DNA from: Psammoneis japonica
Taxonomy: Eukaryota
DNA length: 64,000 nt
Direction of reading: 5' to 3'
NCBI GenBank assembly: GCA_008632985.1
Contig: QPGO01000077.1
Coordinates: 186,001-250,000, forward strand
A program made the translations under genes and the position numbers. The notes beneath the pieces are model-generated. The model saw only the letters and a program-made list of their open reading frames with translations, was not told the origin of the DNA and did no database searches. Positions 1-30,595 of the stretch are shown in pieces (within the stretch, counting starts at the first letter, position 1; each line of letters starts with the position of its first letter).

Positions 1-2830
1 CATGCGTCTGCGTCTTTCAGGTGACTCAGAAAAGGTGTGGAAATGGTGACAGGCTGCACTGACAAACCTTGGCATGAAAGAACAAGACGCTGAAGGAGCG
101 GAGCGTGCTCCCACAGCCAAGACACCATTGGATGCCAGGACAGCTTCGATTTTTCGACTGTGGCAAACATCAGTCAACTCCTAAGATTCTTTGTTGTTGG
201 AAACAAAACAATCACCTCGGGACAACCACGGAGCAGTTCTTGACAAACAAAAGGCTTTTCAGAAGCTGCGCAAATGCCAAGAGAGTTTCAATCAGATGAC
301 GCTCAGCAACCACATCCAACTCAAAGAAAAGGCAGACAACAAAGAGAATGGTGCATCAGTGAATGATTTGTTGGAAAAGGTGAAGGGTGAATTGTCGCGC
401 ATTAAACAGAACAACAGAGCCAGGACTTGTCAAAAGCAGGCATGAGCTGCTGAAGCAGTCAGCACCCCAGAACTGACACGCAATGAAAGTGAAGTGGAAG
501 AAGTCGCCACAGACTTTCTTGACAGCAATTCTGTGCAAAGGCACCAGCTGACATCTGCAAAATGGTCCTCCAACAATCCAGCAGCATGCAAAGATTTGTT
601 TGGGTTTCAATCATTTCCAGAACTCAAGTTGATGGTGTCGGCTTTCTTTCGTGAGGTTCTTCTTGCAGTGCCAGATGCATGTTTTGACAAGAAGGGAAAA
701 AAGCTGAAATGTCATCCTCCAAAGCCAACAACACATTTGAGCAGGTTCTTGTCATCAAGTGCTTCATGCATTGTTGTCCTGTGTGAAAGCATGCAGGATG
801 GACCTTTGGCGTTGCGCGTTGAACCATTTCCGATTGCCTGGACCGTTGGGCACCTTGCTGGGCCACGCTTGGTGAGTTTCTATCCACACTTCCCACACAA
901 AGAAATTGTTTTGACAAGGAACGTCCAGATAAATTCATTGAACACAGACTGGAAAAGACTGGCTTTCTCATGGACGGCAAGGACACCTTCTTGACAGAAG
1001 CAAAGCGCAAGGATGATGCTGCATGTTGCAACCAACAAAGCAACAAAATGCATGGCTCAGCCACTTGATGGGTTAATTTTGTGTCATGTTGTGTGCTGAC
1101 TTGTGAGCACACTGGAGCATTTGGGGCAAGAGCCAAAGAGAATGCCCTTGTTGAAATGACAGGTGAATGCCCGGTTGAGACAGCACCATTGGCAGAATGG
1201 AAGGACCATGCTCTGAAGCATCCAAGTCATGAGATGTTGAAATGCTGGATGGCGCTTGATGATGTGGTGATGGGAAAGACTTTGGATGGTTTGACTGAGA
1301 CTGTTGCACCAGAGTCGCTTCATGCATTGTTGTCCTGTGTGAAAGCATGCAGGATGGACCTTTGGCGTTGCGCATTGAACCATTTCCGATTGCCTGGACC
1401 GTTGGGCACCTTGCTGGGCCACGCATGGTGAGTTTCCATCCACACTTCCCACACAAAGAAATTGTTTTGACAAGGAACGTCCAGATAAATTCATTGAACA
1501 CAGACTGGAAAAGACTGGCTTTCTCATGGATGGCAAGGACACCTTCTTGACAGAAGCAAAGCGCAAGGATGATGCTGCATGTTGCAACCAACAAAGCAAC
1601 AAAATGCATGGCTCAGCCACTTGATGGGTTAATTTTGTGTCATGTTGTGTGCTGACTCATGAGCACACTGGAGCATTTGGGGCAAGAGCCAAAGAGAATG
1701 CCCTTGTTGAAATGACAGGTGAATGCCTGGTTGAGACAGCACCATTGGCAGAATGGAAGGACCATGCTCTGAAGCATCCAAGTCACAAGATGTTGAAATG
1801 CTGGATGGCGCTTGATGATGTGGTGATGGGAAAGACTTTGGATGGTTTGACTGAGACTGTTGCACCAGAGTCGGAAGACGAGTTGAGCTTGGTTGAAGAG
1901 GGAGAGAGCAACAGAAGGAGACAAGGTGTGGTTTTGGATTTGTCAAATGCAGACTGGAGCAACATCGGATCTGAAAGTGACAAAAAGCTGGGTCTGCAGC
2001 AGTGATGAAAGAAGCACAGAAATGGATGATGATGACAATGAAGAACAAACGTCAGATGCTGTGGACTGTGGGAATGACAGCAAGTCAGGTGCGTGCAATG
2101 TCAGCGCTCTTGCACTGGCAGAATTGTGTTTCAACAAAAGGATGGATTTGCTTGACAAGGGAAAGAAACTTCAAGAGGAGGGGCTGAAAAAAAAAACTGC
2201 AATTGTCCAAGAAGATGAAGCAGAGGTTGCAGCATTGAACAAGAAGGCATTGGGAATGTTGCCTCAAAACTCCCCTGAGAGTTTTCTTCAGCAACTTGAA
2301 CTCCTGAAGCGTCTGCACCAGTTGCATGACAACAAATGTGTGGCCCAATGCATGCTCAGTGCATGTCGTGAAATGACAAAAGAGTTCTGTTGGGATGTTC
2401 TTTGCTGGTTGGGCAGTTCTTTGGCACCGGACGATTATGAGTTGACAATCAATGATGCACTGCCACAAGAAGTCCATCTTTGGTTGCACAAAATGCCACC
2501 CAACACAGAGTGCTTGGCAGACAAGGGGTTTGAGAAGACTGAGCAACTCATGCTGCACTTTCCCAGGGTGAGAACTCCTTGAGTGCTTTGGGCAAGGAAA
2601 GCAAAACAATTTGATGTTCTTGAGCTGGGTGACAAAAAGGATCTGTGCAGAATGCGACACCCAATGGAAACTTCCTTTTCTTGGCTTTCCACAAAGCAGG
2701 GTCTTTGTGACATGGTGCCACACAAGAACCTTTGCATGGTGCCCAAGCCCCTTTGAATGCCTGGAAGCAACAGTGGCCTGCCTGAAGACTGCTGGGACCA
2801 GCACTTCTCAACAAATGCAAACAGGGGTCC
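1..2830 (+). pseudogene. PIF/Harbinger-ISL2EU superfamily (DDE_Tnp_4-type) transposase, decayed; 5' end may lie outside the window
   Basis: Cross-frame translation gives HTH_Tnp_4-like 'TFGVAR*TISDCLDRW', first catalytic 'FLMDGKD', 'SNKMHGSA', 'FGARAKE', second catalytic 'CLADKGF' (Y->C), 'VRTP' and 'QFDVLE..RHPME'; multiple stops and frameshifts. Confidence 0.75.
761..1872 (+). repeat. 556-bp tandem duplication inside the transposase (761-1316 / 1317-1872)
   Basis: Direct comparison of the two copies; I found 7 differing sites. Confidence 0.95.
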
Positions 2831-2863
2831 ATTCATGCTTTGCTTGGTCTTTTCATGCTTTGC

Positions 2864-3560
2864 TCATGCAGCGCTGCACTTTGCCAACTCTTGACAAACA
2901 ATCAGTTCCACCAACATGGGCAGCTGATTGAGGGGTGACGGTGGCATTGCATCCTTGAACATCTCTCTGTCAACACACTGTTGCATTTGACGGAACATGC
3001 ACATCATCGCAAGAATGTGCAAACACATTGCTCGTCTGTCACAGCATCCGCAGCATGAAAATGGATGCTGCAACAGTTCCTTTGAGTCTCCATCAAACCC
3101 AACACAAAGAGAGTGTCCTTCTTGCATTTTCTTTGTCTCAGCTGACTCCTCATTGGATGATGCGATGTCTGTTTTCATTGACGGAATGCTTGCAGCTTGA
3201 AAGCCATGCCAACGACCCATCAACCAGTGTTTTGCACAATTGGAACTGTGTTGCATCAACAAGCAAGCTCCCTCATTGCAACAGCAACAGAGCACATTCA
3301 AGATTGTGTTTGTTGCCCTTTGGATAAAATTGTTGAATAAAATCCATGTCAGTTGGCATCAGTCAAGAAACCAGTGCAAAGCACTCATCATGATCCCACC
3401 TGTCAGTGTTGCTTGCAGGTTCCAACACTTCGTGAACCAGCCAATGCCCAATCTGCATTGGAGCCTCATCAGGGGGGAGCAAGCTTCTGCCGCATGCCAC
3501 AAGATCTGTGACTGTTGCTTCCAACTTCTGCCCATCCATCAGAGCATGCATTGTGGTGAT
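2864..3560 (-). pseudogene. SWIM zinc-finger accessory gene, convergent with the transposase (ISL2EU-type ORF2 C-terminus)
   Basis: 'SIPSMK...HSLCVGFD...FSCCGCCDRRAMCLHILA' matches the CxC-xn-CxH SWIM pattern preceded by a PSM motif; an upstream frame reads 'DFIQQFYPKGNKHN'; frameshifted. Confidence 0.6.
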
Positions 3561-4008
3561 TCATCCTGACCACCTTTCTCACAGGCAATTTTTAATGCCA
3601 TCACAGCACCAAATGTTGAGGTTTCAAACCTTGACAGTTGTGCACATGGTGACATTTTATTGAATGTCACAGTTCACAATTTTTCACTGTTGGAACCCAC
3701 CATTCCCTGTGGGATCCAACCCTCAACTGTGTGTGTTCTAATCATTCCACCTTCAGAATGCCGTCCCTTTTTACCTTTTCACTGCGATGTTCAAAACTTC
3801 TTTTAAATGACAAATTGCTGCTGATCACTGCATTTCATGGGTTTAAGGAAAGCTCCATTGCAAACACTGGTTGTCAAATGACAGTTTAGATCATGCAACA
3901 ATGACCACCAAAACACTTCATTGCCACGTCACAACTGTTTGCAATGAACACTAATGCATTGCTTGTCCGCTTTCCATTCTCACACTAACAAAAGGCTCCA
4001 CTGCTTTT

Positions 4009-5290
4009 TCACACCGCAGCTCGCCCATCATCTGAATCTACATTCTTTTTGCTTCCCTCATCACTTTCTTCATCCTCTTCTTCGCTGTCCTTGTCGCCTC
4101 TGTTCTTGTCCGTTACCTCTTCCTCCTTCTCCTCATTGTCACTTGAAAGCTTTAACGTTGCCTGTGTTCTTGCCTCCTTCCCCACTGGTTTTTTCTTTCT
4201 TTTTGCTCCCTTGCTTCTTTCGTCACTCTTCCTTTTCTTGCCTTTGCTGTGCCATGTGTTGAACTGCATGCCTTCCTCACTTGACCTGTCTTCCTTCACT
4301 TCTGCAAGCAGTTTGTTGAATTGCAACATCCCTTCATCCTTCCACGAGTCTTGCCACCTTGACGGGTCCGTGCACTTGGGTGTTGGTTCTGACTCTTCCT
4401 CATCCTCTTTGTCTGAGTCCCCCCCCCCCCCCCCCGCTCCAACAGTCTTTTCATGATGGGCCTTGTGCTCCAAACTCTTCCAGTGGTTGTCCAATGTCAA
4501 CAGCCCCAGAGCCTTGTTGCTTGCCGCAGTCAGACCGGGTGCCTTCATCTCAACGGACTCCACCTTCTTTCTCCATGTTGTGGTGCTCTTTGTGAATTTT
4601 AGGATGTTTTTGTAGAACCAAGCATCACAATTGTTGTCACTGTCTCCTCCTCCCAAGTTGCCAGGAGTGGTTCTTCATCCGCCGTCTGATCATTCTTCTT
4701 CCTCTTCTTCTTCTTCATTCCCCTTCCTCTTGCTGCTGGTTTCTTCTGACCATGTGTCTCCTCGGCTTTGTTCTCTGTCAACACAACTTCAGCAAATGAG
4801 GGCACAGCAGTGTCAAGCACGACCACACTCAACATGCAGTGCACCACAAAACACTTGCCAGCCATTGCATTGTTCTTGATCACCTGTGTGACGGTGCTCC
4901 TTTTTGTGTCAATTGCATGCATGACGCACTTCTTTGCCCAGTCTTCCCATGCTCCTGCCCAGTCTCACTTGCTGCAATTGCCACCGGCTGTCTTTTTCCT
5001 GATGAGCCGTGACACTTTGCCACTGCTTGCCATGTCCATCTTGACAAGGAACTTTGCCTTCGGGAACAGTTCCTTCCGTGCCACCTCTTCCACCTCTCTC
5101 TTCACAGACTGGTGATCCCCAGCAGCTCCCACCCACACCAATGCCGCTGTTGGCCTTGGGCTGGTTGGTTGATCTCCAGCCACCCCCACACTTTGTTTCT
5201 TCTTCTTCCTTGCCATTGCCTGTGCCTGTGCCGCTGTTGCAAATTGTCTGGTGGCTCTGTGCCTTGGGGCCCCAGTTTGTTTCACCATTG
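4009..5290 (-). pseudogene. Transposon accessory protein of the diatom 'SDEA..LL.LEN.W...KYT...GW..EG..RFN' type (Plavaka-associated), decayed
   Basis: 'LFPKAKF', 'SNKALGLLTLDNHW', 'PKCT', 'SWKDEGMLQFNKLLAEVKEDR', basic/acidic tail; probable intron at ~4788-4858. Confidence 0.55.
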
Positions 5291-5668
5291 CAAAAATTTC
5301 AAACCTCTCTTTTAACACTAAAAACCTGATGCTTTTCACCAATGATTCTCTTTTCTCAAAAGCAACATAAACAAGAATTAACCAAAACTTTTAGCGCATG
5401 CACAATTTGTCAATTTTGCCATTCCTCACCATCTTTTGAAAATTTCGAATCCATGCAAATTCCAGTTCAAACCTCTTTGTTGCTGCAATGTCAAAATCCA
5501 CTTCCACACTGTTCAACAACATGCACAAGTGTCTTGCTTAAAAAATCATTTTTAAGAGGTGCACCCACAAAAGTTGTTTTTGCTGCAATGAACAAACAAC
5601 ACACATGCTTTGATGACATTCTGGTTTCTCGCTTGTGCTGCAGTGCATCCATCCTTTTTGGTGCCAAA

Positions 5669-6877
5669 TCATTTTTTCCAGTCCACTTCGACATCTCCCT
5701 CCAACCTTGCAACTCTAAACCTGCTGTGACGCCCAACGTCAGAACAATCAGTCATGTGGATGAAAGCCGTTGTCTCTGCTTGGACACATCTCACGAAACT
5801 GTCTGCTTGAACATGCCACAGTCTCTCCACCCAATGCCTTTCCTCTCTCCTGGTTTGAAAATTCTGCCGCTCACAAATGACACCTGCATTCTCCTTTGCA
5901 ATTAAATCCCGCATCCATTCATTGACTGTCCTTGGAGACAATGGAAAGAACTCCATTTCCTCACAGAACCAAAGTCTTTCATGGCAGTCCTGCAAGATGT
6001 CATGCTGGAACCACTTCGCCAGTTTCAATGCATTGCAAACGATGACCTTGTTGTCCATCATGCCTCCCCAGGGTGATGTTTCTCCCAACAGTCCGCAAGT
6101 GCCCATCTTGTCCATTCCATAAGTTGGCAAGCTGATGCTCGACTTCTGTCTTAATGCCAAAATGTCTCTTGTGTCCATGACCAGTTTTGCATCGTCAAAC
6201 AAGGACCCCGCTGCAAATTCATCCCTCAGATCACTCTCTCCTTTGTTGTGGCAATGACTGTTGACACACCACATCCTTCCTTGCCTGTCTTGGTGCGTCG
6301 CGATGCAGCTCCAATGCTCCTTGCACTTGTGAGCATTGACCCCACGATTCATGACACTGTTCACCCAGTGCGGGTCATTGTGCATGGAGAACATGCGTGT
6401 GCTGGCATGCATGCACTCAATTGCTTTGTCACTCCATCCCTTCAAATGGTTGTGCACCCAAACCATGTGGTTGCATCTCTTCTTCCATTGTTCCTCCCAT
6501 GTTGACCGGCAATCATCATCATCCAAATGCCAATCTACACTGGAGAACACACGAAACAGGTCCATGCAGTCACGGTGGAGGTGAGGGTCAACTGCATGTT
6601 CAGCGCTCGCGCACTCAAACCAACTTCTACCAGTGTCATCAGAATTCACCGTCCCACCTGAGTCTGTTGATTTTGTCAATTGCTCCACTTCGTCAAAAGC
6701 CGCATCACACTCCGCTTGTGGCATGAGTTGTTTTCTCATGTTGTTTGTCATGTTTGTCAACGCATCAAATTTCTGCCAGCAGTCGTTTGGCCAACGGGCC
6801 ATCAATCTGTCATTTTGTACAACGACATTCATTGTTGACAATGATGTGTTCATCTTCTGCTGCAGGTGTGGGTGCAC
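5669..6877 (-). CDS. Transposon-associated 402-aa protein, possibly a Ulp1-like (C48) cysteine peptidase, hypermutated
   Basis: Long intact ORF with a single Tyr; 'HWSCIATHQDRQGRMWCVNS' (HW...YxD/NS-like) and 'MGTCGLL' (catalytic Cys-like). Confidence 0.35.
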   Translation of the reverse strand: MHPHLQQKMNTSLSTMNVVVQNDRLMARWPNDCWQKFDALTNMTNNMRKQLMPQAECDAAFDEVEQLTKSTDSGGTVNSDDTGRSWFECASAEHAVDPHLHRDCMDLFRVFSSVDWHLDDDDCRSTWEEQWKKRCNHMVWVHNHLKGWSDKAIECMHASTRMFSMHNDPHWVNSVMNRGVNAHKCKEHWSCIATHQDRQGRMWCVNSHCHNKGESDLRDEFAAGSLFDDAKLVMDTRDILALRQKSSISLPTYGMDKMGTCGLLGETSPWGGMMDNKVIVCNALKLAKWFQHDILQDCHERLWFCEEMEFFPLSPRTVNEWMRDLIAKENAGVICERQNFQTRREERHWVERLWHVQADSFVRCVQAETTAFIHMTDCSDVGRHSRFRVARLEGDVEVDWKK

Positions 6878-7343
6878 CCCTGCTGTGCTTTTTGCAGTGC
6901 AGCATCACGGTGAGGTGTGTCCACATTGCTTGTGACTGTCACATCACAACTTGCTTTCTCCTTTCCACAGAACAAAAACCTTTGCAATCTGTTGTTCATG
7001 CTCAAAGCAATCAATGATCCCAATGCATTTGATTCATTCCCACCTGTTGATGTTTTCATTGACAGGAAGAACGCAATGCACCCATGTTTTCACGCCAATT
7101 CGTGTCGTGTTTTCCTTGCTTTCTGCCACAATCATTTCACTTTTCACGATCTGAACCAGTGAGGCCCTTTGTCCACACATGTGTTTGTGGAGCCCACAAA
7201 CATCCCAATGTGTCCAAATGGAAGGAAACGCTGGTTGGCAGGTTGAGGATGGTGCGGTTGCATGTCCATGTTGCAAATGATCCTCCACGCGGACACTCAC
7301 CCATTTCCATCACAACCTGCAATGTTTTGCATTTGCTCGAGAG

Positions 7344-8008
7344 ATGTCAAACTTGTCGCATCGAGAGACAGTCGCAACCTGCCCATTGCCGGAGTTGTCC
7401 ATCAGCGTTGCAGCTCACACTTCTCCCGGCAGCAATGACATCTCTCGCAGACAGCGGTCAGCAGATCTTGACCTTTCTTCCTCATCAGATGACTTGTCAC
7501 CACCCCAGCTGAGGAGGTCCAGATGTGGTGCGTCTGTTGTGAACATCTGGCTTGGGCCAACTGCTGATGAACATGACCAAACCGATGCACTGTGGTCACC
7601 ACCATTTGATGATGACATTTCCCCTCTTGGGTCATGATGCAATCACGAGGAGAGCCATCACATGTCTGTGGACATGTTTTTGGAAGAAAGTGAGTCAGAC
7701 AGAAGCCAACTCGTTTGACGCGTTGCCAGATGTCACAATGGACGCCTCCGAAGTCACAAATCATGACGAATCAAACACCTCTGATGAAGACGAGGAATTG
7801 CTGAGTGATGACAGCCAATTGGGAAAGGTGCACCAGAGCCCAGCCAAAGATGCATTTGCCTGCTTGCCCTCTCTTGGCAACATCAACGGTGCTTGCGCAG
7901 AGCTTTGTAAGCTCACAGATGACTGCAGAGCACCGCTTCACCTGTGCGACAAGATCGCAAAGTTCATTGAAAGACACTGTGGCAGTGCATTCCAGATTGG
8001 CACACTGC
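7344..8008 (+). pseudogene. N-terminal fragment of a Plavaka-like transposase, truncated at ~8009
   Basis: Acidic N-terminal region, then 'CAELCKLTDDCRAPLHLCDKIAKFIERHC', which is the APLYLYD.I motif with Y->H/C changes; divergent from the accessory ORFs. Confidence 0.55.
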
Positions 8009-8100
8009 CAGAGGACTCAACCGGTCCCGGCATCCGTGACTGAAATTTCACCATGGTGAAGTGCGAGAGTCAAATCATTCGATTGGACTCAACCGGTCCC
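8009..8100. repeat. Putative element terminus: CAG start, 16-bp direct repeat GGACTCAACCGGTCCC (8013, 8085), palindrome TTCACCATGGTGAA (~8047)
   Basis: Seen directly; coincides with the truncation point of the Plavaka-like ORF. Confidence 0.5.
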
Positions 8101-8779
8101 GATTTTGCATCAAAAAGGCATGTTTTACTTTGATGCATCTCGCCATGGCATGCATCATTGGGTTGATGCATCTTTCATGGGGGATCTTTTTCTGCCATTG
8201 TTGTGAAGAGGTTGATGCATTGGTTTGGTTTTCTGGGGGGCTTTGGTTTTGACACATGGTGCAAACGGCAACATGCCTCGACTTGTGACTTGATTGCTGC
8301 AGGGTGCGTGCAACATGTGAATGGTCGACAATGTTGCGACGGTGAGTTCTCTTTGTGTTTTGTCAATTCATGTCATTTTCCCATTCACCAAAGATCATTG
8401 TTGTTTTTTGTTACAGCGTGTGAGGTCGATTGATCGTCTCGTACGGTCGATTGTTGCATCTGTGATGTTGGTGTCTTTCTCATGGCGTTTGCACCACCAC
8501 AGTGCATCCGTTTGGGAGCCTCATGCTTCGTCTCACTCTTTGTCCTTTGGCGCATCTATTTGTGCCATTTGTTTGGACTCGTGACAAGCTTGACATGTTT
8601 TTGGAGGTCTTGGTCGGCTCACAATCACAGCATGTCGTTTTTCGGTGACAACAATTTCATCGTGGAACCCCACAAATGTGCGGGGACCCGCAACCAGGAA
8701 ATGTGTGGAGTTGCACGTGCATGCATGGGGACCATTTACGTGGGTTTCATTGACCACTCAGTGGTTGGTGATTGCAGAC

Positions 8780-9465
8780 TTTTTCGTGTCGGTCCGGCAG
8801 TCGGGCAGTCGGGCAGTGGGGGGGTCGGGCAGTCGGGCAGTCGGGCAGTCGGGGGGTCGGGCAGTCGGGCAGTCGGGCAGTCGGGCAGTCGGGTTGTCCG
8901 TCTGAATTTGAAAGTGTGTCCCTTGGATTTTGAAAGGGCATGGGTTGTTCAGTGCAGATGAATTCTTCGGATTCTTGGAATTGTCATTGAGGACATGAGA
9001 GGTTGTGGGGACATCCTAAAAAATCGATAAATTCCCTACGACGGGTGCGTGGCACGGTTTTTCAGGAGAGCTCGAAAGTTCTGAAAAATTGGGATTGCCG
9101 GCGTGGCATGTTCAAAAATGTGTTCAGTTGTGTGCAAAGACAATTTATCGTGAATTCTACATGAAAAAGTCACATTGGGGAAAACACATCAAACAATGAG
9201 TGAGTTTGTGCGATGTGCCATTGTGGCGATAAATTGGAAAAAAAAGAGTGTCCGTGCACCTCGCTGCAGCCCCAAAAATGGCATGAGACATCAAATGTGA
9301 CGGTCATCCGCGTCACCGGTGCGGTGGCCACACCACTCAGCCACCACAATGCCTTCCCCGGCAGTGGGGCCCTGCGCACGTACAGGCAATGCAGCATGCA
9401 ACGGCACACACACACCCACACCCACAAAGAAAGACAAGTGGTCAATGCTCCCCACAGGCCTGGTT
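8780..9465. mobile_element. Dispersed repeat copy 1 (probable DNA-transposon terminus ending ...CAGGCCTGGTT)
   Basis: Colinear homology with 17755-18368; homology ends at the same motif in both copies. Confidence 0.85.
8795..8893 (+). repeat. 8-bp minisatellite (GTCGGGCA)n
   Basis: About 12 tandem units with some GGGGGG variants. Confidence 0.95.
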
Positions 9466-13200: not shown

Positions 13201-14679
13201 GGGGACAGTCAAGGAAGGCTCTGGTGGGGCATGTGCAATCACAGGGTGTGAGGAGGTGCCGTGAGACAACAGATGCAGGCAGAAGGTTGAAGGCAGGAGG
13301 TGGGGGGGGGGGGGGGGGGGTGCTCACCATCGCACAAACAGGTGCCATCTTTGCAGATCCTCTTAATTTTGCATTTGGTTTTAGATTTGTGCTCTCGTTT
13401 GTTGTCATCTTCCAAGCAGTTGGCCCTCTGATCACGCATTCTGCAACAAAGCATTGTGAGCCGCTTGCTGCACCTGGGTTGGATGCCAGTTTGCTCCTTG
13501 GGACAACGCTTCCCAAATTCATGATTCAACATGGAATTGATTTTTTCTTTGTGTGCCTCCTGGCATGCAAGGGAATTGCCTTGCATTGTCGCTGTGTTCT
13601 CAATGTCACCGATTTGGTCACCAAGGAACCCCTTGATCTCATCTGCCTGGGAACCAGGATCATTGGTGTCGCACACAACCAGCAAGCTGTTGACAAACAG
13701 GTGCCATTTCTTTTGGGTGTTGACATGACAAAAAATCTTCAGGAACCAACAATTTGTGTCCTTTGGTTTGTGCTGAACGTAACGCATGACAATGTCAGTG
13801 ACAAAGCATGCACCATGGAGGTCTTGGGCTCGTTCGTTGATCAAATTTTGGAGACTTTTGCAACTTAAAAATTGGAAACAAGGCTGACCAGATGCGGGAT
13901 CATTTGGGTCGTTGCTGGTGATGATCACATGGACAAATTCTGCCATTGCCCAGATGTTGCGGTGGAGAAGCATGTGGTTCTGCTGTTCTTTTTCTGTCTC
14001 TCTGGACATTTTGGAGAAATGGAGAGCCTCCTTGAGATTTTTGTGTCGAAGGACACACTCACCTTTCAGCGCGCAAGATTTCTCAATGGACCAACCTTGA
14101 GTCATGATGCAGGACCAAATGTTGGGACAGCCAAGAGTTTTCCTTACAATGTCATTGGTGCGGATAATTTCAGCAACATGTGAAACACAACGTAACTTTG
14201 GCTTGTGACAAAGGAAGGGAAGAGCAAGGAATTCTGGAGAGGGGGTCCAATTTGTCATCTCCAAAAACTGCTTTTTGGATGCACGCGTTGCGATTGTGCT
14301 TTTGAGCTTGGGTCCAAACAATTTGAATCCAAAACCATTGGTGAAACATTCCATTTCATCAAAACTGCAGTCCTCTTGGCAAATTGGAAGGAAGGGTCAG
14401 GGTCGACCTTGTCGTCAGACGGGGTGAAGCAGTTGGCCACCATGGCCAACAGTCAGTTGCCGATTCACATAGAATGTGCAGGAATTGCAACAGTGCACAC
14501 TCTTGTCAAATGTGTTTTGGGGAGAGGATGTGCTGTTGTGAAACAGGTGGAGCATTGTGCATGCAGAAAATGCAACAAAATCCAGGTGGGGAGCTGTTGA
14601 CTGGAGTTCTGGTGGGTGCAGGTGAAAAACAATGAGCCAAGTGCTCATGTGGCCAACTTGGGCGTAGAAGAAATGCCAT
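10242..14679 (-). pseudogene. Large (~1,400-codon) decayed transposon-borne gene: N-terminal C2H2-like finger, Pro-rich linker, HxDxxN motif and a helical domain with an E-h-x-LCE motif
   Basis: Consecutive minus-strand ORFs 13239-14354, 12769-13269, 11995-12615 and 11034-12212 join through frameshifts; motifs 'CIFC...HILSPKH', 'CHCDVKN', 'SGAAAQL...TEHKLCE...DCVFHG..QDLF'. Confidence 0.55.
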
Positions 14680-14918
14680 CCTCTGTGGTGGTGCAAGAGT
14701 GTGTTGGAGCCATTGAAAAGAACTGTCAAAGTTAACGTTCAATAAATTTGTCAAAACAAAACTTATTTTTCGCAAATGAAACACATGTTGAAAGTCATTG
14801 GCAAATTTAAATCAAAACAAAACGGTGACAATTACACACATAAAAAGGCAACAACAATTTCAACATGACTCTCATCTTTGCAAGTGAAGTTTAAACATGA
14901 CAACATGCTTGCACACCA

Positions 14919-16242
14919 TCAAATGTTCCGAACAAGACAAAGGAAAGTGAGCACCACTGTGTTGCAGCCTCTGATGTCCACTGCAATGGGGCACCCCATC
15001 CGAGCTGATGTCCAACACTGCAGCACATCCGTTGGCATGCATTCCACCGGAACTGCATCAAAGTTTAATTGTGCATGCATGGGAAGCTCTTTTCCTTCTG
15101 CTTTGGCATTCTCAAGAGCACTGCACGTGGGTGTTGGAAACATCTCAGTGGTGCACCATTCAGAAATGTTGGGCCTTTGAATCAACACGCTCATTTGTAG
15201 TCTGCAGCGGACACAGGAAGCAACTGAAACGGATCGAACCCTGTCAGGTCAGTCCAACCCTGACAACCTGTGTCTGAATTAAGAGGAGTCAATGGGACTA
15301 AATTTCCATGCTCATTGAGTGCAGGGCAATGATTGAACAGTGCAATGGCATGGTCAAAATTCTTCGTGCAATTGTCAGGGATCAACATGGTTCTGAATTC
15401 ACCCACAACAGCCTCTGCAACGCAAGCACCAGAAAAATCATCATCAAGCCTCGGCAGAATCCTCTTGAATGTTTTTTTGAAACCAATGTTGTGCACCAAA
15501 CTACAGCAATCAGACCCAAGAAGATTTGCCATCGCTGCCCAATGTTCAAAATCAAAAGCAGTGATGGGACAATGTTTTGGAGGCAGAAAGTCCTTCTGAT
15601 TGTAGACCTTCCATGTGTCATTCTTTGTGCCAGTCTTGAAAGGAACCATTTTGGCACCCAGTGTGATTGTGTCTCTGTCTTCTGTCATTGCTGCATCAAT
15701 CCGGCCTTCTGCTTCCATCTTAAGTGGCTGGTGCTCTCGGCCTTGAATGGTGCACAGTCAAAAAGGATTCCCTCAGGCTCCATCCACTCTTTTGTCAAAT
15801 GAGATGTCATGTCAGGATTGGGACTACAAAGATCTCTTGTGCATTTCAGAGACTCTCCACAGTCAGACTTGCAAATGGGAGACCCAGCCTTTCCTTTTGC
15901 AACATGCTCCTCCAACCACTTCTTTGCTTTGTTTGTCTTTTTGTCTCAGGTCTCTCTTGCAACGCTCTTCATGGGATGCCGAAATCCATCAAAGACAGAG
16001 AATGGAGTGATGCTGGCAGAGACAAGCTTCCAGTGGCTTGACTGCAGTGATGCCAATGAACTCTTCAGTGGATGCGCAGGATTGGCCATCAATCACCGTG
16101 TGGTGGCATCAGTGTGGCAAGCCTCATGGAGCCACACTGATGCATCAATCCCAACCGTCTGCCCTTCTGTGTGTCAAAAAGGCATTGATTTGCTTTTGTT
16201 GACAGCGCCAAGCACCTCAATCCAAAGCTCCCTGATTCCCAT
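14919..16242 (-). pseudogene. EXO1-like XPG/FEN1-family 5' nuclease, decayed, inside the repeat domain
   Basis: 'MGIRELW...GQTVGIDASVWLH...ITPFSVFDGFRHPMK' (XPG-N); 'CAPFKAE...GRIDAAMTEDRD' (XPG-I); 'LLGSDCC..HNIGFKK' (H3TH, with DY->DC); in-frame TGA stops consistent with CGA->TGA. Confidence 0.85.
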
Positions 16243-16819
16243 GGTCAACACAGCCACTGCAAGAATGACAGTGCTGCTGATGATGTGGGCAAGAAATTCT
16301 GAAATCTCAGAAACTCCCCCAAAATCTTCTCGAGTGTGACGCGTGCATCTGGCACATGCCACCACTGCTTGTGAAGGATGAATCCTCATGTGGCGGCATC
16401 TTTTTTTACACAGCTTGTGATTTTTCAACTTTCTTGCATTTTGCAATGCCTCTGAGCACCCCTGAGCACTTGTGAGTGTGCCCAACTCCCATCAGGGCCG
16501 ACAGACATGCACTTAAGCTGCACTTGTCAGTGGTTGTTGTGCTCAACAAACTGCTCTTTTCACCAAAGTCATGCTGCTTGTGGCTTGTGGCAAAGAACAA
16601 GCCACAACTTTGCAGAAATGCTGGCAATTGAGGGTGCACAGCTGGCTGCTGCAAACATGCCCATGACTGCCAACCAGGGTGCCCCGGACCCCTGCACAAA
16701 GCACAACTGGGGCACTCAACAATGTTGCCTCTTGTTGGGAGCACCAAATCAAGCCAAATGTTGCTTCTGAAGCTGATCTTGCTGTCAAGCAAAAAGCCAC
16801 TGAAGACATGCTCTCCAGC

Positions 16820-17180
16820 TCCAGGCAGGGCTCTGTGCAGCGCTGGGCTCACAGAGCTCTGCGCACAAGCTTTTCAGTGTGAGAGCTTGGCCAGTGGATG
16901 TGTTTGTCTTTTACACAACACAAATGACCAAGTTTGTGCTGCAGCTGTGCCACTTGACACTTGGCCTTTTTGAGGGCTTGTCCCCACCCTGTGCCACTTT
17001 TGAGACATTTGAGAGTGGCACTGTGAAAACACGTCGACAGTTGTTGAATGGACAGCTTGACAAATGTGCCAAAAAATGACACAAAATTGTGCCCAAAGCC
17101 ATGCAGAGGCGTGCATGTGTGACATGCAGTGGACAAAAAACTTTGACATTGCAGCCCAGCATTGCAAGGTCCTCTCCAGC
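16820..17180. repeat. Diverged dispersed non-coding repeat, second copy at ~19920-20280
   Basis: Shared blocks GACATTTGAGA.TGGCACTG, AAAATGACACAAAATTG and TGCAAGGTCC; starts with a GCTCTGTG/CACAGAGC hairpin. Confidence 0.7.
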
Positions 17181-17754
17181 CTTGTGCTGGAGTGCATCGG
17201 AAAAAGTCAAATGGGGGCAAGTCCAGATTGTGTGACAGTTCCAAGCCAAGAAATGTGTGATTGAATACAAGAACAACAATGGAGTGACAATTGCACATGA
17301 GTCAGAGAGAGAAAATGCCGGGACAAAAAAATTTGTCCCGCAGGTGTGAAAAAAGTTAAACAGATGGCCAAATTCTGGCACATTGACAGGGGTCGTCAGC
17401 CAGAACTGGCACAAAAGAGATGCAGAGCTGTGCATCAAGTGCTTGCATGTCAAAGGGGAGCCAGCCCACAGCAATGACCATCATCTGTTGAGGAGTTTGT
17501 GGCACAGCAAAAATTGATCCACGCCATGTAAAAAGTGCAACACAGCAGCCATGGGTGGAGACACCACAGAAATCACACAGAAACAAATTTTCTTGGATCA
17601 AAACAAGAGTTGCCTTGTTCGACAGAGGGTGCTCAGAGGTGCTTGGAATGGGGCACAACTTCTTCATTGGCCTTGCATTTGTCAAGATCAAGAGCAAAGA
17701 AATGACCGCCATTTTCCTGCACTTTGCCGTGCAATCACAACTGAAAATGTTTGA

Positions 17755-18368
17755 TTTTTTCGTGCGTTGGGGGGTCAGGCGGGGGTCCGCCCATCCAAAT
17801 TTGAGAGTGTGTCCCTTGGATTTTAGAATGGCATGCGTTGTTTAGTGCAAACAAATTGTTCAGATTCAGAGAATGATCATTGAGGACATTGGAGGTTGCG
17901 GGGACATCCTTAAAAAATTGACAAATTCTCTGCGACAGGTGCCCGGAACTGTGTTTTCTAGAAGAGCTCAAAAGTGCTGTAAAATTGGGATTGCCGGCAT
18001 GGCATGTTGAAAAATGTGTTGAGCTTTGCACAAAGAGAATTTGTTGTGAATTGCACATGAAACAATCATGTTGGAAAAAAACATCGAACTGACAACAAGT
18101 GAGTTTGTGCAATGCGCCATTTTGGCAACAAATTGGGGAAAAAAGAAAGAGTGTCCATGCACCTCACTGCAGCCCCAAAAATGGCATGAGCCATCAAATG
18201 TGATGGTCATCTATGAGAACAGTGTGGTGGCCATGCCACTCTGCTGCTGCAGTGCTGGCCCCGGCGGCAGGGCCCTGCACATGTGTGCAGGCAATGCAGT
18301 GTGTGCAACAGCACACACCCACACCCGCAAAGAAAGACAAGTGGTCAATGCTCCCTGCAGGCCTGGTT
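17755..18368. mobile_element. Dispersed repeat copy 2 (homologue of 8780-9465)
   Basis: Direct alignment; this copy has lost more TA and CG sites than copy 1. Confidence 0.85.
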
Positions 18369-19049
18369 TTCATGCATTGACTCATTTGCAGTTTTGGAAT
18401 GTTGTTGCAGCTTGCATGATGCCAATGGTGACTGGCATCAAAAGCAGAAGTTCTCACATCTCCAATGATGCATCTGCCAAGTCACCTGACTGCTCAGTTG
18501 GAGAGAATGAGAAACACAGTGCTTTTCTCACTTTTGCCACACTTCACCATGTAAAAATCAACTGAGCACAATGATCCATGCCATTTTCATGGCAAAATTG
18601 GGGTCACATTGTCAAGCACAATGAATCCACCTTTGTGCCATTCCCACTTTGTGTAAATTCTCTGTCATCCCTTGAGCAATGCCAGCAGTCCAACTCATCC
18701 GTCATTGTTGTCAAGGTCCAACTCGGCAAATTGACATCACTTTTGTCAAAGGTGACATTTCTGGCAAATGGCTTTTTTGCCAAAAGAGAAATTGAACCTG
18801 TGCAGTTTGTTGGTCCAAGAGCACACATGACAAAACGGGGCTTGGTGGGGTCCTTGGCCGTTGCCTTGTCACAAGCCTCACGAGCTGGCTTTGCACCACA
18901 CAGCAATTCAGTTCATGCACATGGCATCCACACTGGCGGCAGCAGTGGATGATGATGATGACTGTGATGCATCCAAGGTAGAAGCAGTTTTTCTGCCACC
19001 ACCATCTCTTCCACCACTGCTCCCTTGCAGTTGTTGTTTGAGTCATTGC

Positions 19050-19290
19050 AAAATGCTCTTTTGCCAACAGTTGCTGTTTGGGATTTAAATGCAACATGTG
19101 TCAACAGGCAGTTTGGGTTGAAGGTGATTCATTCTTGTGCAGATTGGATTGAAGTGAAGTCATCAAGGTGCACTGTTGATGATGTTCCATCAAATCTCCC
19201 AATTCTGTGACATGCTCACCATTCAAAAAGAGTTCCATCATGCAACAACCAACACCAAAAATGTTGCTGGCAGGTGTCCTGTTGTTGACG
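19050..19290 (-). pseudogene. Fragment of a VPS15/PIK3R4-like protein kinase C-lobe
   Basis: 'TPASNIFGVGCCMMELFLNGEHVTELGDLMEHH...LHKNES..QTAC*HMLHLNPKQQLLAKEH' resembles Vps15 subdomains IX-XI. Confidence 0.6.
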
Positions 19291-21479
19291 TCTTTGTCAT
19301 GAATCATGGCAGCTGTTGCTGACAACCTGTTTGTTGTTCTTTGTTCTTGAAGGGTGGATCATCATTTGTTGGGAGTTTTTTTCAGAAAATGCATCAACAA
19401 GATGGTGCTGCAACAACAAGATGTTCACAAGATGGCATCTCTGATTGGGCCAACACGCCAGCATCAGTGGGTGCAAAAAATCTCCCACAAGCAAAAAATT
19501 GAAACTTAAAGATTGATCAAATGAGTCCCAGATGGATCAGCATGTTTGTTGTTGTCTGCCACACAAAATGCCCACAATGTCAGCCTCCACTGTGCATGCC
19601 CGCAATTGCAAATTTCGTGTTGCACTTTTTTGCCTGGCACCTGCCATCTGCTGTTCTTGCAATGCCGCAGCAGTGAAGTCACCTCAGTGACAACAAAGAA
19701 AAGCTCCACTTTGACAATTTCTTAATGCCTTCCCCCATTTGCCCCTCCCAGCAGAAACAAAGTGAGGGTGGTCCATTGGTCGGAATGGGCCATGTTGTGG
19801 CCCTTCCAGACCTGATGAAAAGCAAAGCTCAAATGAAGATGGTGTTTTCCAATTCAAGAAAAAATCTTCAACAAAAATGAGTGGCTTCCCTCTGACTTAA
19901 GGACAGTTGTTGACATGTGCTCCAGCCCAGGTGGGGCTCCATGTGTGATGTTGGGCTGTGCTGGAGTTCTGCATGTGAGCTGCACAGTGCAAGAGTTAAG
20001 TTGACAGGTGCACTGAAAAAAGCCAAGTTTGCAGTGCAATTGTGCCTCTTGACAATCAACATCTTTGGAGATTTGCCTGCCCTGCACCATTCTCAAGACA
20101 TTTGAGAATGGCACTGCAACAAAAAACAAAATGTCAAAAGTTGTTGAGTGGATGACCCAACAATTGCACCACAAAATGACACAAAATTGCACCAAAATCA
20201 TGCAGAAATGTGCTTGCACAACATGCAAGAAATGAAAAAACTTCAATGTCACAGTCTGGTGCTGCAAGGTCCCACCCAGAGCTGGAACACATCTGCTGAT
20301 GAGCGCCGGCCAAAGAAGGTCTCAGGAGATGTTGGCAAGAATGGAGTGGCAAACAAGAAACAGCTTGCAAAGAAACAAAAAAGTCCATGGCTGAGCTCAA
20401 AACAATGATGATGTTTGTCAACATTTTTTCAATTAAGTTCTGCAGCAAATCAATTTGTCACATGCTGGGAGTTCCTTGTCACCATTGATGCAGGCTTCTC
20501 ACTCAAGTGCAGTCATGCAAAGAGATCCTCAAAAGAGTGCAAGTCTGCCATTTCACTGGAAAAACAACAAGAGCCCAAAAGTGTCAAGCACAATTGCAGT
20601 TTTAAGACAAATTGTTTGCTGGCTGGACCCAGCTTTGAAGAGGCAGAAAGTTGAGAGGAGGCATTGGTTGCCAGCTTGAGTCACATCATTTGAGTTGACA
20701 CACAGTGACAACTGCACTTCCAGTGTCAAAGAGCTTTCAGTGGCAAAAAGAAGATGGGTGCAACATTCTGCAGCATTGAGCCAAAAGAGCTTGGAGTTGC
20801 AGCTGAAGTCATTGCTGACCCAAACTCTTCTCACTTGCAACTCCACACACTTCTGCATGACTGCATCCCCCAGACAGATGCTCAATCATGTCTGATGACT
20901 CCCAAAATGCAAGGGAGCATGCAGCCAAAGCACACCCAAAGGGGAAGCAGCACCTTGACAACAACCAATCTGCAGGAAAGCTGGTGAATTTCAAACCTCT
21001 TTATGAAGATGAAGAAATTCAGCTTCCCAACACAGACTTGTGCTGCAAACAATGAAATGAACTCATGGAATCTGCCATGGACAATTCACACAGGATGCAG
21101 CAAGAAGGCTGTGGACTTCCTCCAAACCCTGAAGAGATGGAGTCCAGGCTTTGACTGCAGGATGAAATGCAACTCTGAAACTTGATGCCAGACAGTTCTT
21201 TGGGTTTCTCAAACAGTGCAACAAGAGCATGGATCCATTGTGGCATCACTGTTTTTCTCAGCACCATGAAGACAAAACTGAACAGAGTCTCCCCAGGAAA
21301 CACATTGGTCCAGCATCTCATGTTTCAGACCCATTAAAGCAGGAGTTGTGGGCAGCATTGCAGAGCAAGGAAGGTGTGGAAAGTGTTGCAAAGTGAGGAA
21401 GGTGCCACATGGAAATCACTGGTGCAAAGCAAGAGGTGGAAAATGTTGCAAAGCAAAGAAGATTTTGTTTGAAGCTGCG

Positions 21480-22442
21480 CCAACACACTGGCTCAGGTGT
21501 GCAGCTGCTGCTCATCAGCTGTTGGAACATGTTTCCAAGTGCAACCAGTGAACTCCCGCCATCATCAACTTGATGGACTGGCAATCTCACACAGTGCTCA
21601 TTAAATGACATTCCAAGAAACACATTGGCATGGTCAAACTTGTCCATGACCTTCTCCCAACAAACAAGATTGCTCATTGGTGTGATCCCATCTACCCACA
21701 TCATTGTCTGACTTGTGAACATCCCATGGACAAGGACGGAGATCACATGCTCTGGTGCCCAAACAACAAAGCTTGGTGCAGAAAATTTTTGCAAGGGCTT
21801 CACAAATGTTGCGATCACATTGATGCCATTCCTCCACTTCAAGATTTCCTGATGGCCTCTTTAGAAGCTTGGTTCAATGAAGAAATGACACACACACCAA
21901 CAAGGTGGGCTGTTGCTGCAGAACTCTGTGGGATGCTCAGTTGGACACAGGATGGTGGCAGGTTTTTAACGGATGCTGCTCTTGCCTCAGGAATGTCTTG
22001 CAATCTGGCCACTTGCGCGATTCAGGTGTCCTCCATCAGCACCAAGAGGAACACAAACAACCCCCAAATTGGACAGTTCAAACAGGATCTTGCACATGGA
22101 AGCAGTGGCAGGAACTCTGGGAAGAGCACAACCAGTTAGTTTGTGGTTGTGATGTTGAATCTAGGAAATCTTCCCAATGGCACCAAGCAGAGGCACCAAG
22201 CTGACAGCAACACACAACAAATGTCAGGAGCATTTGATGAAAGATCAAGGAGTGTCGTTGGACACACCAGCAGAACACAAGATGTTTTCTCTGCTGCCAG
22301 AGCCCAGAATTGGATCTCAATGGTCCACCCCAGATTGAAAGAAAGTTTGAAGGAAGCAAAGCACCAAGCACTTTGTGGCACACTCACCATTGCCAGTCAT
22401 GTCCGTTGGGCATCTCCTGCTGGAGGTGCCACAACCGGCTGA
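21480..22442 (+). mobile_element. Non-LTR retrotransposon (diatom Ambal/L1-like) ORF2 3' fragment
   Basis: 'MDWQSH...KLVHDLLPT...CLTC...DGDHMLWCP' (CCHC finger), 'QLDTGWWQVFNG', 'WKQWQELWEEHN..VCG.D'. Confidence 0.75.
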
Positions 22443-23419
22443 TTGCACAAACTTCTGCCACACCCCTTGCAGGGCGCATTGGAAGTGTGGGTTAGCTGGC
22501 ACCGGTGTTGCTGGGCAAAGGTGCAACGGCACTTTAAAATCAGGTTTGGTTTTTTTTTTTGGAATGCACACATTTGCCAAAATGAAATTCCAGTGGTGGG
22601 CCAAACTTTGTTCACTCCTCGTGAGAGATCACAGAGTGCACAGAAGATGGTTTTGACCATGCTTGATGTTTGGCTTGTTGACTGCAGTCCTGGAAAAAAT
22701 GTGGTGTGGCCACCTTCAAGTGGCCCCATTTTGACAACAAGTGATGCTTTTTTGAAGCTTCCAAGTGTGGCATGTGCAAAAGAAGTGCCAGATCTTTCAC
22801 AACACAACACACCAAAACAACCATGGAAATGCTGCGATTGCTTTTGTTGTTTGCAGTTTGCTGCACCCTTGTGAGGCCCACCTCTGCAGCAGAAGGGTGA
22901 GCAACTCAAAGAGATGCTGTTGAACACACAGCAGATCAACTTGAGCCACTTGTGGGCACAATGAGTCTTGCGGCAATGCTCCAGCATGGTTCAAGCAAAG
23001 AAGTTTGAGGCGGCGAATGTCAGCTCAGATGTTGGCACCACAAGCCCTGCCTTTTTCATGAAAATTGCCTTGTGAGGATGCTTCACAAGAGTGGAGAAAC
23101 CTGTCAAAAAGATCAGCTGATGGTTGGAAAGAAGGGTGGCACTTTTGGTCATGACACTGTGACACTTTGCACAAAAGAGTGTGGAAAACAATCCAGAGTG
23201 ATGGTGCCAAGCATGCATTCAACAGCCAGCCTTTCCTGTCCCAGGAGTGGACAAATGACATCGCAATGGTTGGGCCAACAAGCACAGTGCCAATGTCACA
23301 CAATTGCCACATTTTGTTTTTGCTGCATGTTTGTCTTGCAGAAAAGAGCATCATTAAAAAGAAGGAGCCTCGAGATTGAGGCATGATTGTCACAACATGA
23401 TCCGAAAGTGGCGAGGAGC

Positions 23420-23545
23420 TGGGGAAGCAGATTCTTTTGTCAAAATGAAGAGCATCACTGGCACTGAGGAGGGTGTTTGTGTTGCAATGTTGGAAGACAA
23501 TGGGTGGGAGTTGAAAAGATCCATTGAAACATTTTTTCAATCGGG
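23420..23545 (+). pseudogene. UBA-like domain fragment at the edge of the hypermutated domain
   Basis: 'MKSITGTEEGVCVAMLEDNGWELKRSIETFF' fits the UBA_4 pattern; the upstream part could not be reconstructed. Confidence 0.5.
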
Positions 23546-24063
23546 CCAATGGCAATGGCGCAGAAGGAGGGAGAATGAAGAGAACTGTTTTGTTTTGTTG
23601 GCTGACGCGCCTTTGTTGTGCAAGATGTTGGATTCTAAGCTCTTTACTTCTATCATAATTTATAAGCTTAAGAAAACCAGTTTTTGATCTTTGCTTTACA
23701 TTTTACCTTTTTCGGTTGTCTACAACGTGACTTGCAACACACTTGAGCCAGACGAGAGAGCACGAACTTTTGTCATGAGGTGCTCATGAGCTTTGCGGAT
23801 TTTGGGCGCTTGCGCTGTAGCTCTGTCGGTTCGTGGTCGGTTATGTTCGTGGGCCGGCCGCGGCCGCAATGGCGTCGAAGCGAAGGCGTTTCAGCGTCAC
23901 AGTATATCGAAACGAAACGGAGTGCCTCCCGTCAAGCTGATTATTGTACCTCGCTTAAAATTAGCTTGCTTCAGTTGAAGTACTGTTACGCCTGAGAGCA
24001 TACGTAGAAAGCCAACAGAGCTGCAAAGATACCTGACGATTCGACAACAACAAAAAATTGAAC

Positions 24064-25284: not shown

Positions 25285-25289
<5 letters not shown>

Positions 25290-25319: not shown

Positions 25320-25320
<1 letters not shown>

Positions 25321-28629: not shown

Positions 28630-28789
28630 GAGATGCATTTTAAAATTCTACCAAATCCATAAAATCATTTGACTTTGGAACTGGCTCTCAGAAATGTGGG
28701 ATAGAAGCAAGCCGATGCGCAAAGAATGCTTCGTTTCCTCCAACATTTTGGCAAGTCATTGAGAATTGGTCATAGGAGATTTCAAGTGA

Positions 28790-30130: not shown

Positions 30131-30595
30131 CATGAAAAGCGGTGACAAGATGGCTCAATTTGCACCGTCAAATGACCAAAATTGAAAATGACCGTTCTTT
30201 TCTTTTGTGGTCGTAAAAGAAGTGCTTTCGGCACTCGCACATACAACACTGTGTAAAAAATGCAAACGAACGAGCGCGGTCACCACATTGTGACCTTTGG
30301 TTGTCGAAGATTGAAGATTTATGCCGATAAAATATAAATGACAACCGATCATGAGAGACATTGTGGTCGCACGGCGGAGAATGTCCATTCCTACTTACTG
30401 GAGAGCTAGTAGATAGTCCTGTACAGGATCGTAGAGGGTCATCGGTCATCGACGACCAAAACTTGCATTGCAACCTGCACCTTGTGCATGTGCGAGCAAC
30501 GAAATAACAGGAGAGAAGAGCAATCAACGACGAAAAGCCACTGAAGAGCAATTAAGATATTGTCACAGATGAATAACAAATACCAGATTACCATA

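Follow-up and report, generated by a model that had tools for sequence, protein, structure and literature searches.

Results

Composition and borders of the TpA-poor domains

The DNA analysed here is a 64,000-nt window of the diatom Psammoneis japonica (GenBank assembly GCA_008632985.1, contig QPGO01000077.1, positions 186,001 to 250,000 of the forward strand), in which blocks of DNA that have lost nearly all of their TpA dinucleotides and much of their CpG lie beside genes of normal composition, among them ATG5 and a protein kinase gene (Table 1). Two-state segmentation of the window placed the TA-poor domains at 1-8783, 9694-23629, 28734-30208 and 41787-45638, in agreement with the sharp borders that an earlier note on this sequence had put at about 23635, 28790-30130 and 41700-45760; the border at 23629/23630 is visibly abrupt in the letters themselves. 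In the main domain multi-copy repeats alternate with low-copy fragments, and its inner stretch 8784-9693 shows a weaker CpG depletion than the rest.

Table 1. Features of the P. japonica window (o/e, observed/expected ratio; ORF, open reading frame)
Feature	Position	Strand	Characteristics
Main TpA/CpG-depleted, TG/CA-enriched domain	1..23629	.	TA o/e 0.07-0.09, CG o/e 0.28-0.39
Recent tandem duplication, 2 x 557 nt, 98.4% identical	761..1873	+	Copies 761-1317 and 1317-1873
Copy A of a multi-copy family, more CpG kept	8905..9465	+	80% identical to copy B; TA o/e 0.19, CG o/e 0.70
XPG/FEN1-like nuclease pseudogene fragment	15194..15757	-	Best relative E 7e-29
Copy B of the multi-copy family, more decayed	17798..18368	+	TA o/e 0.15, CG o/e 0.33
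Segment with UBA-like ORF (23358-23684; UBA_4, E 2.7e-7), paralogue elsewhere	23312..23793	+	Domain border 23629/23630 inside
ATG5 gene, internal control	24037..25068	+	Three ATG5 domains; 31 TA; run X2 contig over 23858-25192
Protein kinase gene with introns	25370..26832	-	Pkinase domain; normal composition
Small TpA-poor island, fills the gap between two genes	28734..30208	.	6 TA (o/e 0.06), CG o/e 0.18
Third TpA-poor island	41787..45638	.	18 TA (o/e 0.08), CG o/e 0.33

All 23 of the 1-kb bins of 1-23000 had a TpA o/e of 0.01-0.24, together with a mean TG/CA o/e of 1.55-1.98 and a CpG o/e of 0.04-0.80; in the bins covering genes the corresponding values were 0.27-0.99 for TpA and ~0.7-1.3 for CpG. 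The segmented domains gave a TA o/e of 0.06-0.09, CG 0.18-0.39 and TG/CA 1.66-1.84, and the normal segments a TA o/e of 0.54-0.62 and CG 0.82-1.06. Over the 28,042 nt of TA-poor domains, 154 TpA were counted, whereas the frequency in the window's own normal DNA would predict 1041 (binomial p 2e-265). Recounting also reproduced the two figures from which the near-absence of TA had originally been noticed, namely 2 TA in bases 1-600 and, in the ATG5 control, 31 TA, or 18 per 600 nt (previously given as about 17).

The share of TA among dinucleotides fell from 3.57% in normal DNA to 0.61% in the TA-poor domains (a loss of 2.96%, or six-fold) and that of CG from 6.08% to 2.00% (a loss of 4.08%), while TG plus CA rose from 14.56% to 21.57%, a gain of 7.01% as compared with a combined TA and CG loss of 7.04%. 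The TpA loss amounts to about 42% of the TG/CA gain and equals what the CpG loss leaves unexplained. Overall base composition, GC content included, is the same inside and outside the TA-poor domains, and AA, AT and the other dinucleotides that are not pyrimidine-purine (YR) steps stand at 0.82-1.18 of normal, with AA at 1.04 and TT at 1.18. Both products are balanced between the strands, TG and CA counts differing at p<0.01 in only one of the 23 1-kb bins. CpG is co-depleted in the same domains as TA, beyond what the earlier note stressed, and the two losses are correlated across 56 bins (rho 0.47, p 2.7e-4).

The stretch 4001-6000 has a strong purine/pyrimidine strand skew (GC -0.31, AT -0.27), with TG/CA still balanced. 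An 8-nt microsatellite, GTCGGGCA x 12.8, occupies 8792-8893 inside the TA-poor domain and, unlike its surroundings, has kept all its CpGs.

Stop triplets were reduced to 2.9 TAA and 1.2 TAG per kb in the TA-poor domains (24 for TGA), as compared with 8.8 and 7.5 per kb in normal DNA. With the disappearance of TAA and TAG, long frames open up in all six frames of the TA-poor DNA, so that long ORFs there are no evidence of genes. The 402-residue ORF with a single Tyr described earlier was recovered as ORF 5672-6904 on the minus strand (411 codons from stop to stop, one Tyr); no homologue was found for it among 1003 candidates, and it may be only a product of the TAA/TAG loss.

Sequence context of the lost TpA

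In the TA-poor domains TTAA was found 47 times, close to the ~49 expected, whereas ATAT was absent (0 vs ~70 expected), ATAC/GTAT were reduced to 2 (vs 152), ATAG/CTAT to 5 (vs 106) and GTAC to 5 (vs ~75). TTAA makes up 47 of the 154 residual TA, as compared with 41 of 871 in normal DNA (Fisher p 4e-19), and its 47 sites are evenly spread (Kolmogorov-Smirnov p 0.90). When TA sites were grouped by the number of T[A]A half-sites, survival was 0.96 with two, 0.17 with one (67/393) and 0.067 with none (40/599), a roughly multiplicative pattern near the expectation for independent hits on the two strands.

The products of half-protected sites were lopsided. On the assumption that the ancestral composition was like that of the flanking genes and that CpG decay was split evenly, gains (in 1e-4 of tetranucleotides) were 43 for TTGT vs 12 for TCAT, 37 for TTGC vs 13 for TCAC, and 22 for TTGG vs 12 for TCAG, an asymmetry that matches, and is suggestive of, an A before A being refractory. 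The preference that emerges for the position following the target A is C, T > G >> A, and from these contexts we infer that the target is 5'-T[A]B-3' (B = C, T or G), TTAA being immune as a site that reads T[A]A on both strands.

Changes between paralogous copies

The two copies of the tandem duplication differ at nine bases, one of them a transversion and eight belonging to the TA/CG/TG/CA network, where they comprise two TG<->CA doubles, one TA<->CA and three CG<->TG/CA differences. The TG<->CA doubles are the expected outcome of independent opposite-strand hits on one ancestral TA or CG, and therefore the process was active after the duplication, which preserves a record of the most recent changes. 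Deeper divergence was available in copies A and B of the multi-copy family. Copy B, the more decayed of the two, has kept one of the seven TA and three of the 21 CG sites of copy A. For TA and CG together, 22 of the 28 sites of copy A read CA or TG in copy B and four were unchanged (for TA alone, 6/7 read CA or TG), as compared with conservation of 292 of 412 sites (71%) for the 12 non-YR dinucleotides.

These small samples of aligned sites, with the Tyr changes described below, indicate that TA and CG were converted to TG/CA in place and on both strands, the CG changes being intermixed with those of TA. The loss of TA also seems to run ahead of that of CpG, copy A having a TA o/e of 0.19 while its CG o/e is still 0.70.

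Tyrosine codons in an XPG/FEN1-like pseudogene

Six protein motifs had been put forward as cases of conserved Tyr replaced by Cys or His, and one of them could be compared with homologues. ORF 15194-15757 (minus strand) aligns to the H3TH region of human FEN1, reading LLGSDCC against LLGSDYC, so that the conserved Tyr of the GSDCC motif has become Cys (codon TGC). This Tyr to Cys change stood, whereas the other five motifs (CLADKGF, APLHLCDKI, PKCT, LRCAA and LMEHH) had no alignable homologue: the ORFs that hold them gave no Pfam match at E<=0.001, and a PDB sequence search with the ORFs of the first three returned 0, 0 and 1 chance match, respectively.

Relatives of the XPG-like ORF at E<=0.001 numbered 24, with a best E of 7e-29. 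At the three Tyr-consensus columns where the window ORF has lost Tyr, the homologue residues (n = 64) were 37 Tyr, 11 Cys, 9 His and 7 others, so that 20 of the 27 non-Tyr residues were Cys or His, as changes of TAY to TGY or CAY predict; the window ORF itself has Cys (TGC) at two of these columns and Phe (TTT) at the third, and has kept Tyr at a fourth. Eight of the 24 family representatives were Tyr-poor (0.84%) and rich in Cys, His and Met, the remainder having 3.6% Tyr. An indexed search for the family gave 12 ENA matches, and no relative on a viral contig was found. Four short metagenomic loci (L001-L004) that encode intact relatives have a normal TpA content (o/e 0.52-0.76) and keep Tyr, which answers the concern raised earlier that active copies might be equally TA-poor.

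The family is about 650 residues long, with XPG_N and XPG_I nuclease domains followed by a C-terminal CxC..CxH motif (SWIM-like) carried by the relatives, and looks undescribed. Because short Tyr-poor fragments are frequent among its public copies, the gene could itself belong to a mobile element.

Support for the sequence, copy number and content of the domains

Contigs rebuilt from run X1 differed from the window by 0-2 letters over 14856-17647, 20268-22357 and 22843-25280, and a single 5058-nt contig spans 26035-31000, that is, the island 28734-30208 with both flanking genes, at 11 differing letters; this agreement indicates that the sequence is real. At 80% likeness or more (a limit at which old repeats now less alike would go unseen), 2538 contig pieces aligned to 11001-31000, 262 of them at 99% or more, 405 at 95-99%, 742 at 90-95% and 1129 below 90%. 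A single place in the TA-poor part could be covered by as many as 36 different contigs, which indicates that the large domain is multi-copy over much of its length. The aligned pieces depart from the window by 987 transitions and 378 transversions. In the kinase gene, the contigs of run X2 leave out intron-like stretches, as RNA-derived contigs would; they gave little or no cover over most TA-poor bins, which was not taken as evidence of silence.

ORFs in the TA-poor DNA were scanned against Pfam (95 at E<=0.001, 142 at E<=1 and 40 at E<=0.01), and the only credible matches were XPG_I (E 1.6e-4, below the cut-off) and UBA_4 (E 2.7e-7). The view in the earlier note that unrelated element families had been hit is not borne out by these scans, in none of which a transposon domain was detected. 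The TA-poor DNA contains multi-copy repeats but no recognised viral or transposon domain, so that a foreign origin is no more than a possibility. In the island 41787-45638 none of the 28 ORFs of at least 75 residues had a Pfam match at E<=0.01, and no terminal inverted or long terminal repeats were found to bound it; Rfam, tRNA and tandem-repeat scans revealed nothing at the domain borders.

Targeting of the process

Depletion was compared with summed contig depth, a rough proxy and not a copy number. The segments 15003-16336, 20339-21672 and 28734-30208 match the flanking genes in depth and were recovered in long unique contigs, and the low-depth TA-poor bins (n = 6) had a TA o/e of 0.059 and a CG o/e of 0.14, as compared with 0.091 and 0.33 in the high-depth bins (n = 10). 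The UBA-like segment offers a second comparison, as the border of the main domain falls inside it. Its paralogue lies elsewhere, on a 5544-nt contig, and is also present in the RNA-like run X2; the two differ by 47 letters over 23312-23583 and by 15 over 23656-23793, and the TA o/e of the segment is 0.04 to the left of 23629 and 0.65 to the right.

The earlier note had called the process repeat-targeted, a "reverse" form of the repeat-induced point mutation (RIP) of fungi, in which duplicated sequence would be recognised and only repeats mutated at TpA. Homology targeting of this kind would fit the multi-copy nature of much of 11001-23006 (with up to 36 contigs over one place) and the fact that a UBA-like copy with a paralogue elsewhere has been hit; in addition, RID-related DNMT4 genes are widespread in diatoms, with no function assigned in the accessible text of PMC9998398. 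However, the bins of flank-like depth are at least as depleted as the others, the island 28734-30208 assembles in one contig with the flanking genes, and the tandem duplicate, at 98.4% identity, differs at nine bases only. The part of the UBA-like segment that is shared beyond the border has normal TpA; such a border within duplicated DNA, and damage just as heavy where depth is low, speak against a trigger whose limits are set strictly by homology. The main target of the comparable process in Bigelowiella natans is likewise single-copy, according to the available part of its description (bioRxiv 10.64898/2026.01.13.699255). Homology targeting is thus unlikely, and the label of repeat-targeted was only partly sustained; we infer instead that the cue is regional and of a chromatin type.

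Neighbouring genes

Introns of the kinase gene were apparent from run X2 contigs that skip 25905>26016 and 26729>26837, with CT..AC ends that correspond to GT..AG on the minus strand. The other genes of normal composition in the window are three single-domain ion-channel genes, giants with PT repeats and a short-chain reductase, whose best named relatives are all from diatoms (63-76% identity). Three very long ORFs (789, 1603 and 1106 residues; plus strand, GC near 0.60) occupy 30545-41471 and carry 108-nt (36-residue) PT repeats that are ~66-80% alike, followed by DUF7507/DUF11 domains; together they probably represent one giant repetitive surface protein gene. The three neighbouring single-domain Ion_trans cation channel genes lie at 50479-56173, two on the minus strand and one, split by an intron, on the plus strand, and 50815-51306 is 68% alike to 55083-55574 in inverted orientation. 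ORFs 27496-28626 (+), 46326-48536 (+), 49050-49865 (-) and 62878-63696 (+) have normal composition and gave no Pfam match at E<=0.01.

Discussion

Composition, paralogues, strand symmetry and Tyr columns all fit the central proposal of the earlier note, a change of A to G at TpA on both strands in gene-free, repeat-rich DNA, and we consider it likely that a TpA-specific A:T>G:C process is at work. The TA-poor domains as a whole are probably old gene-free diatom DNA, rewritten in place by two context-specific transition processes. They would consist largely of repeats and pseudogene fragments, probably methylated. One process would hit the A of 5'-T[A]B-3' independently on either strand, turning TA into TG or CA; it would be of the same kind as the hypermutation of B. 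natans and faster than CpG decay. The other would be the ordinary decay of methylated CpG to TG/CA. Targeting would follow the silent, methylated state of the chromatin rather than sequence homology.

For the first process, the leading though tentative candidate is an enzyme, ADAT2/TadA-like or another deaminase, that would convert adenine in DNA to hypoxanthine. This chemistry is favoured because the changes are pure transitions of one base in one context on both strands, with AA untouched, and because the deaminases of tRNA A34 use a U-A step: their natural target, A34, always follows U33. The UA-step target of the TadA and ADAT2-ADAT3 tRNA deaminases fits the T[A] requirement, but the exclusion of A at the next position is not tied to these enzymes. 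For the second process, Hoguin et al. 2023 (PMC9998398) describe, in the text accessible, diatom transposons that are CpG-methylated through DNMT5a, so that decay of 5-methylcytosine (5mC) is the natural reading of the CpG loss. Decay in silenced transposons explains this loss and part of the TG/CA gain, but cannot remove TpA.

Several points weigh against the two-process reading. It is based on one static sequence, with few informative paralogous sites or columns (7, 28 and 3) and no new mutation observed, and the mass balance, context ratios and product asymmetry all assume that the ancestral composition equals that of the flanking genes. The co-depletion of CpG and its correlation with TA loss (rho 0.47) mean that one shared cause is possible, and the hypermutable regions of B. 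natans are almost devoid of C>T changes in the available text of the preprint (bioRxiv 10.64898/2026.01.13.699255), unlike the CpG-depleted domains of the window. Phe (TTT) at one conserved Tyr column of the pseudogene requires a transversion, and the Tyr-poor XPG-like relatives come from public ENA contigs with no organism of origin given. The Pfam scans of TA-poor ORFs revealed no transposon or viral domain (transposase, reverse transcriptase or integrase), and the stretch was found in the runs of one sample only, probably the source.

The correlated losses of TA and CpG in the same domains would also fit an error-prone patch repair, in which the frequent T:G mismatches left by deamination of 5mC attract non-canonical mismatch repair together with a pol-eta-like polymerase that makes A>G errors at WA motifs. 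The WA hotspot of pol eta includes TA, but the polymerase also makes transversions and hits AA; in the TA-poor domains AA and TT show no depletion (1.04 and 1.18 times their normal share, a measure of composition only), and we know of no pol-eta feature that would spare TTAA. Copy A, moreover, has lost most of its TA and yet keeps a CG o/e of 0.70. In the available text on B. natans, 230 of 231 mutations were pure transitions, all on TpA (bioRxiv 10.64898/2026.01.13.699255). The pol-eta mechanism, which the earlier note had listed among its candidates, is thus a poor fit, and we consider this explanation improbable.

It is very improbable that the composition is intrinsic or selected, whether through the arrival of DNA (for example, viral) already poor in TA and CG or through selection against TA. 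The borders do coincide with intergenic blocks, but the signature is shared by unrelated sequences, the copied host-type UBA gene and the nuclease pseudogene among them, the paralogues differ precisely at TA/CG versus TG/CA sites, and the intact XPG-like relatives, none of them in viral contigs, have Tyr and normal TpA.

No more credible is RNA editing followed by reverse transcription, with ADAR-like A-to-I edits of retroelement RNA copied into DNA: one-strand editing should give one product, whereas TG and CA are balanced in 22 of 23 bins, the preference of ADAR for the base after the edited A differs from the C, T > G >> A found here, no reverse transcriptase domain turned up in the Pfam scans of TA-poor ORFs, and the tandem duplicate and the gene-fragment copy were hit in place, although ADAR does favour a U before the edited A (discussion of bioRxiv 10.64898/2026.01.13.699255, in the part available). 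A sequencing or assembly artefact at modified bases, which the restriction of the stretch to runs of one sample, with no library type on record, might suggest, is hardly to be believed given the match of the X1 contigs (0-2 differing letters over several kb), the diverged copies that carry TA/CG where the window has TG/CA and the reverse, and the Tyr to Cys/His changes in ORFs of other public contigs.

Other causes were rejected. Decay of methylated CpG alone accounts for a loss of 4.08% against the TG+CA gain of 7.01%, the remainder being the TpA loss of 2.96%; GC-biased gene conversion is ruled out by the unchanged GC content and by only TA being hit; and the CpG-oriented bias of a T:G glycosylase, as described in the accessible text of PMC4041421, would create CpG, the opposite of what was observed.

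As a process, the rewriting of TpA in the window is not new, contrary to what the earlier note supposed. Mettrop et al. (bioRxiv 10.64898/2026.01.13.699255, from the available part of which the following statements on this organism are taken) described in 2026 a TpA>TpG/CpA hypermutation of integrated DNA of nucleocytoplasmic large DNA viruses (NCLDV) and virophages in B. natans. Mutation-accumulation lines revealed, in two integrated viral regions, a mutation rate ~1000-fold that of the remaining genome; there, 230 of 231 changes were A>G or T>C, and the GC-biased ones all fell on TpA. In the genome as a whole there are 124 TpA-poor, CpA+TpG-rich clusters, and DDE and reverse-transcriptase domains are over-represented among its low-TpA genes. 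The authors liken the process to RIP as a form of defence and propose an ADAT2-like adenine deaminase, citing DNA editing by ADAT2 of amphioxus and Trypanosoma. When their cluster definition was applied to the window, it picked out 23 of 23 bins of 1-23000, as well as 29001-30000 and 42001-45000.

The two cases share the discrete regions beside normal genes and the long-term footprint of TpA depletion with CpA+TpG enrichment in clusters, and probably also the dinucleotide target with its products and the action on both strands. They differ in that B. natans is a chlorarachniophyte (Rhizaria) and P. japonica a diatom (Stramenopila), in that the window is near saturation (TpA o/e 0.06-0.09, as compared with 0.45 in the B. 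natans NCLDV region), and in that no viral origin was detected in the window. De novo mutations were seen in clonal lines of B. natans, whereas the window is known from static sequence only. The portion of the preprint that is accessible is silent on CpG and on context beyond the dinucleotide, whereas in the window CpG is co-depleted and TTAA spared. The near-saturation, the coupling with CpG decay and the TTAA-sparing rule are new relative to known TpA hypermutation, and the window adds a second major lineage, and a more extreme case, to a phenomenon known since 2026. Literature searches turned up no account of TpA-specific hypermutation, or of TpA-poor repeats, in diatoms.

Among better-known systems, fungal RIP is similar in that it hypermutates whole regions by transitions, destroys repeats and leaves behind a sharply bounded dinucleotide footprint. 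RIP, however, turns C:G into T:A mostly at CpA and so creates TpA (PMC2621366, in the text accessible), whereas in the window TpA is destroyed, six-fold in frequency, with GC unchanged; RIP is also limited to duplicated sequence and runs up to the ends of the duplication; in the window low-depth bins are equally depleted and the border lies inside a segment with a paralogue, although old repeats now less than 80% alike may have escaped notice. The APOBEC3 and ADAR enzymes of animals offer another parallel, as deaminase-driven mutation serving as a defence against selfish nucleic acids. Nevertheless, APOBEC makes C>T changes, whereas those of the window are A>G at TpA, strand-symmetric and in resident chromosomal DNA, and ADAR, which is specific to animals, acts on double-stranded RNA.

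A wider proposal can be made, which we regard as doubtful: a TpA-specific, DNA adenine-deaminating defence would be an old shared trait of the SAR supergroup (at least of diatoms and chlorarachniophytes), aimed by silent, 5mC-marked chromatin and not by homology, with a T[A]B specificity that would leave TTAA as the only word with TA to survive, and would be a main transposon-erasing force in diatoms. If the footprint is that of the Bigelowiella process, it would be a second, chemically opposite counterpart to fungal RIP. The enzyme to be sought should act on T[A]C, T[A]T and T[A]G, spare T[A]A and work on both strands of chromosomal DNA near methylated CpG, and a natural DNA adenine deaminase with a defined context would interest base-editing research. 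The process would also account for the difficulty of annotating diatom repeats, with Tyr, Ile and stop codons rewritten and false ORFs in all frames, and gene finders and repeat classifiers for such genomes must allow for TpA decay. Should the defence reading be true, it would explain the lack of recognisable protein domains in much of the repeat DNA of diatoms. If the process is the same as that of Bigelowiella, it would be no curiosity of one lineage, but a genome-shaping force in diatoms, which are major primary producers.

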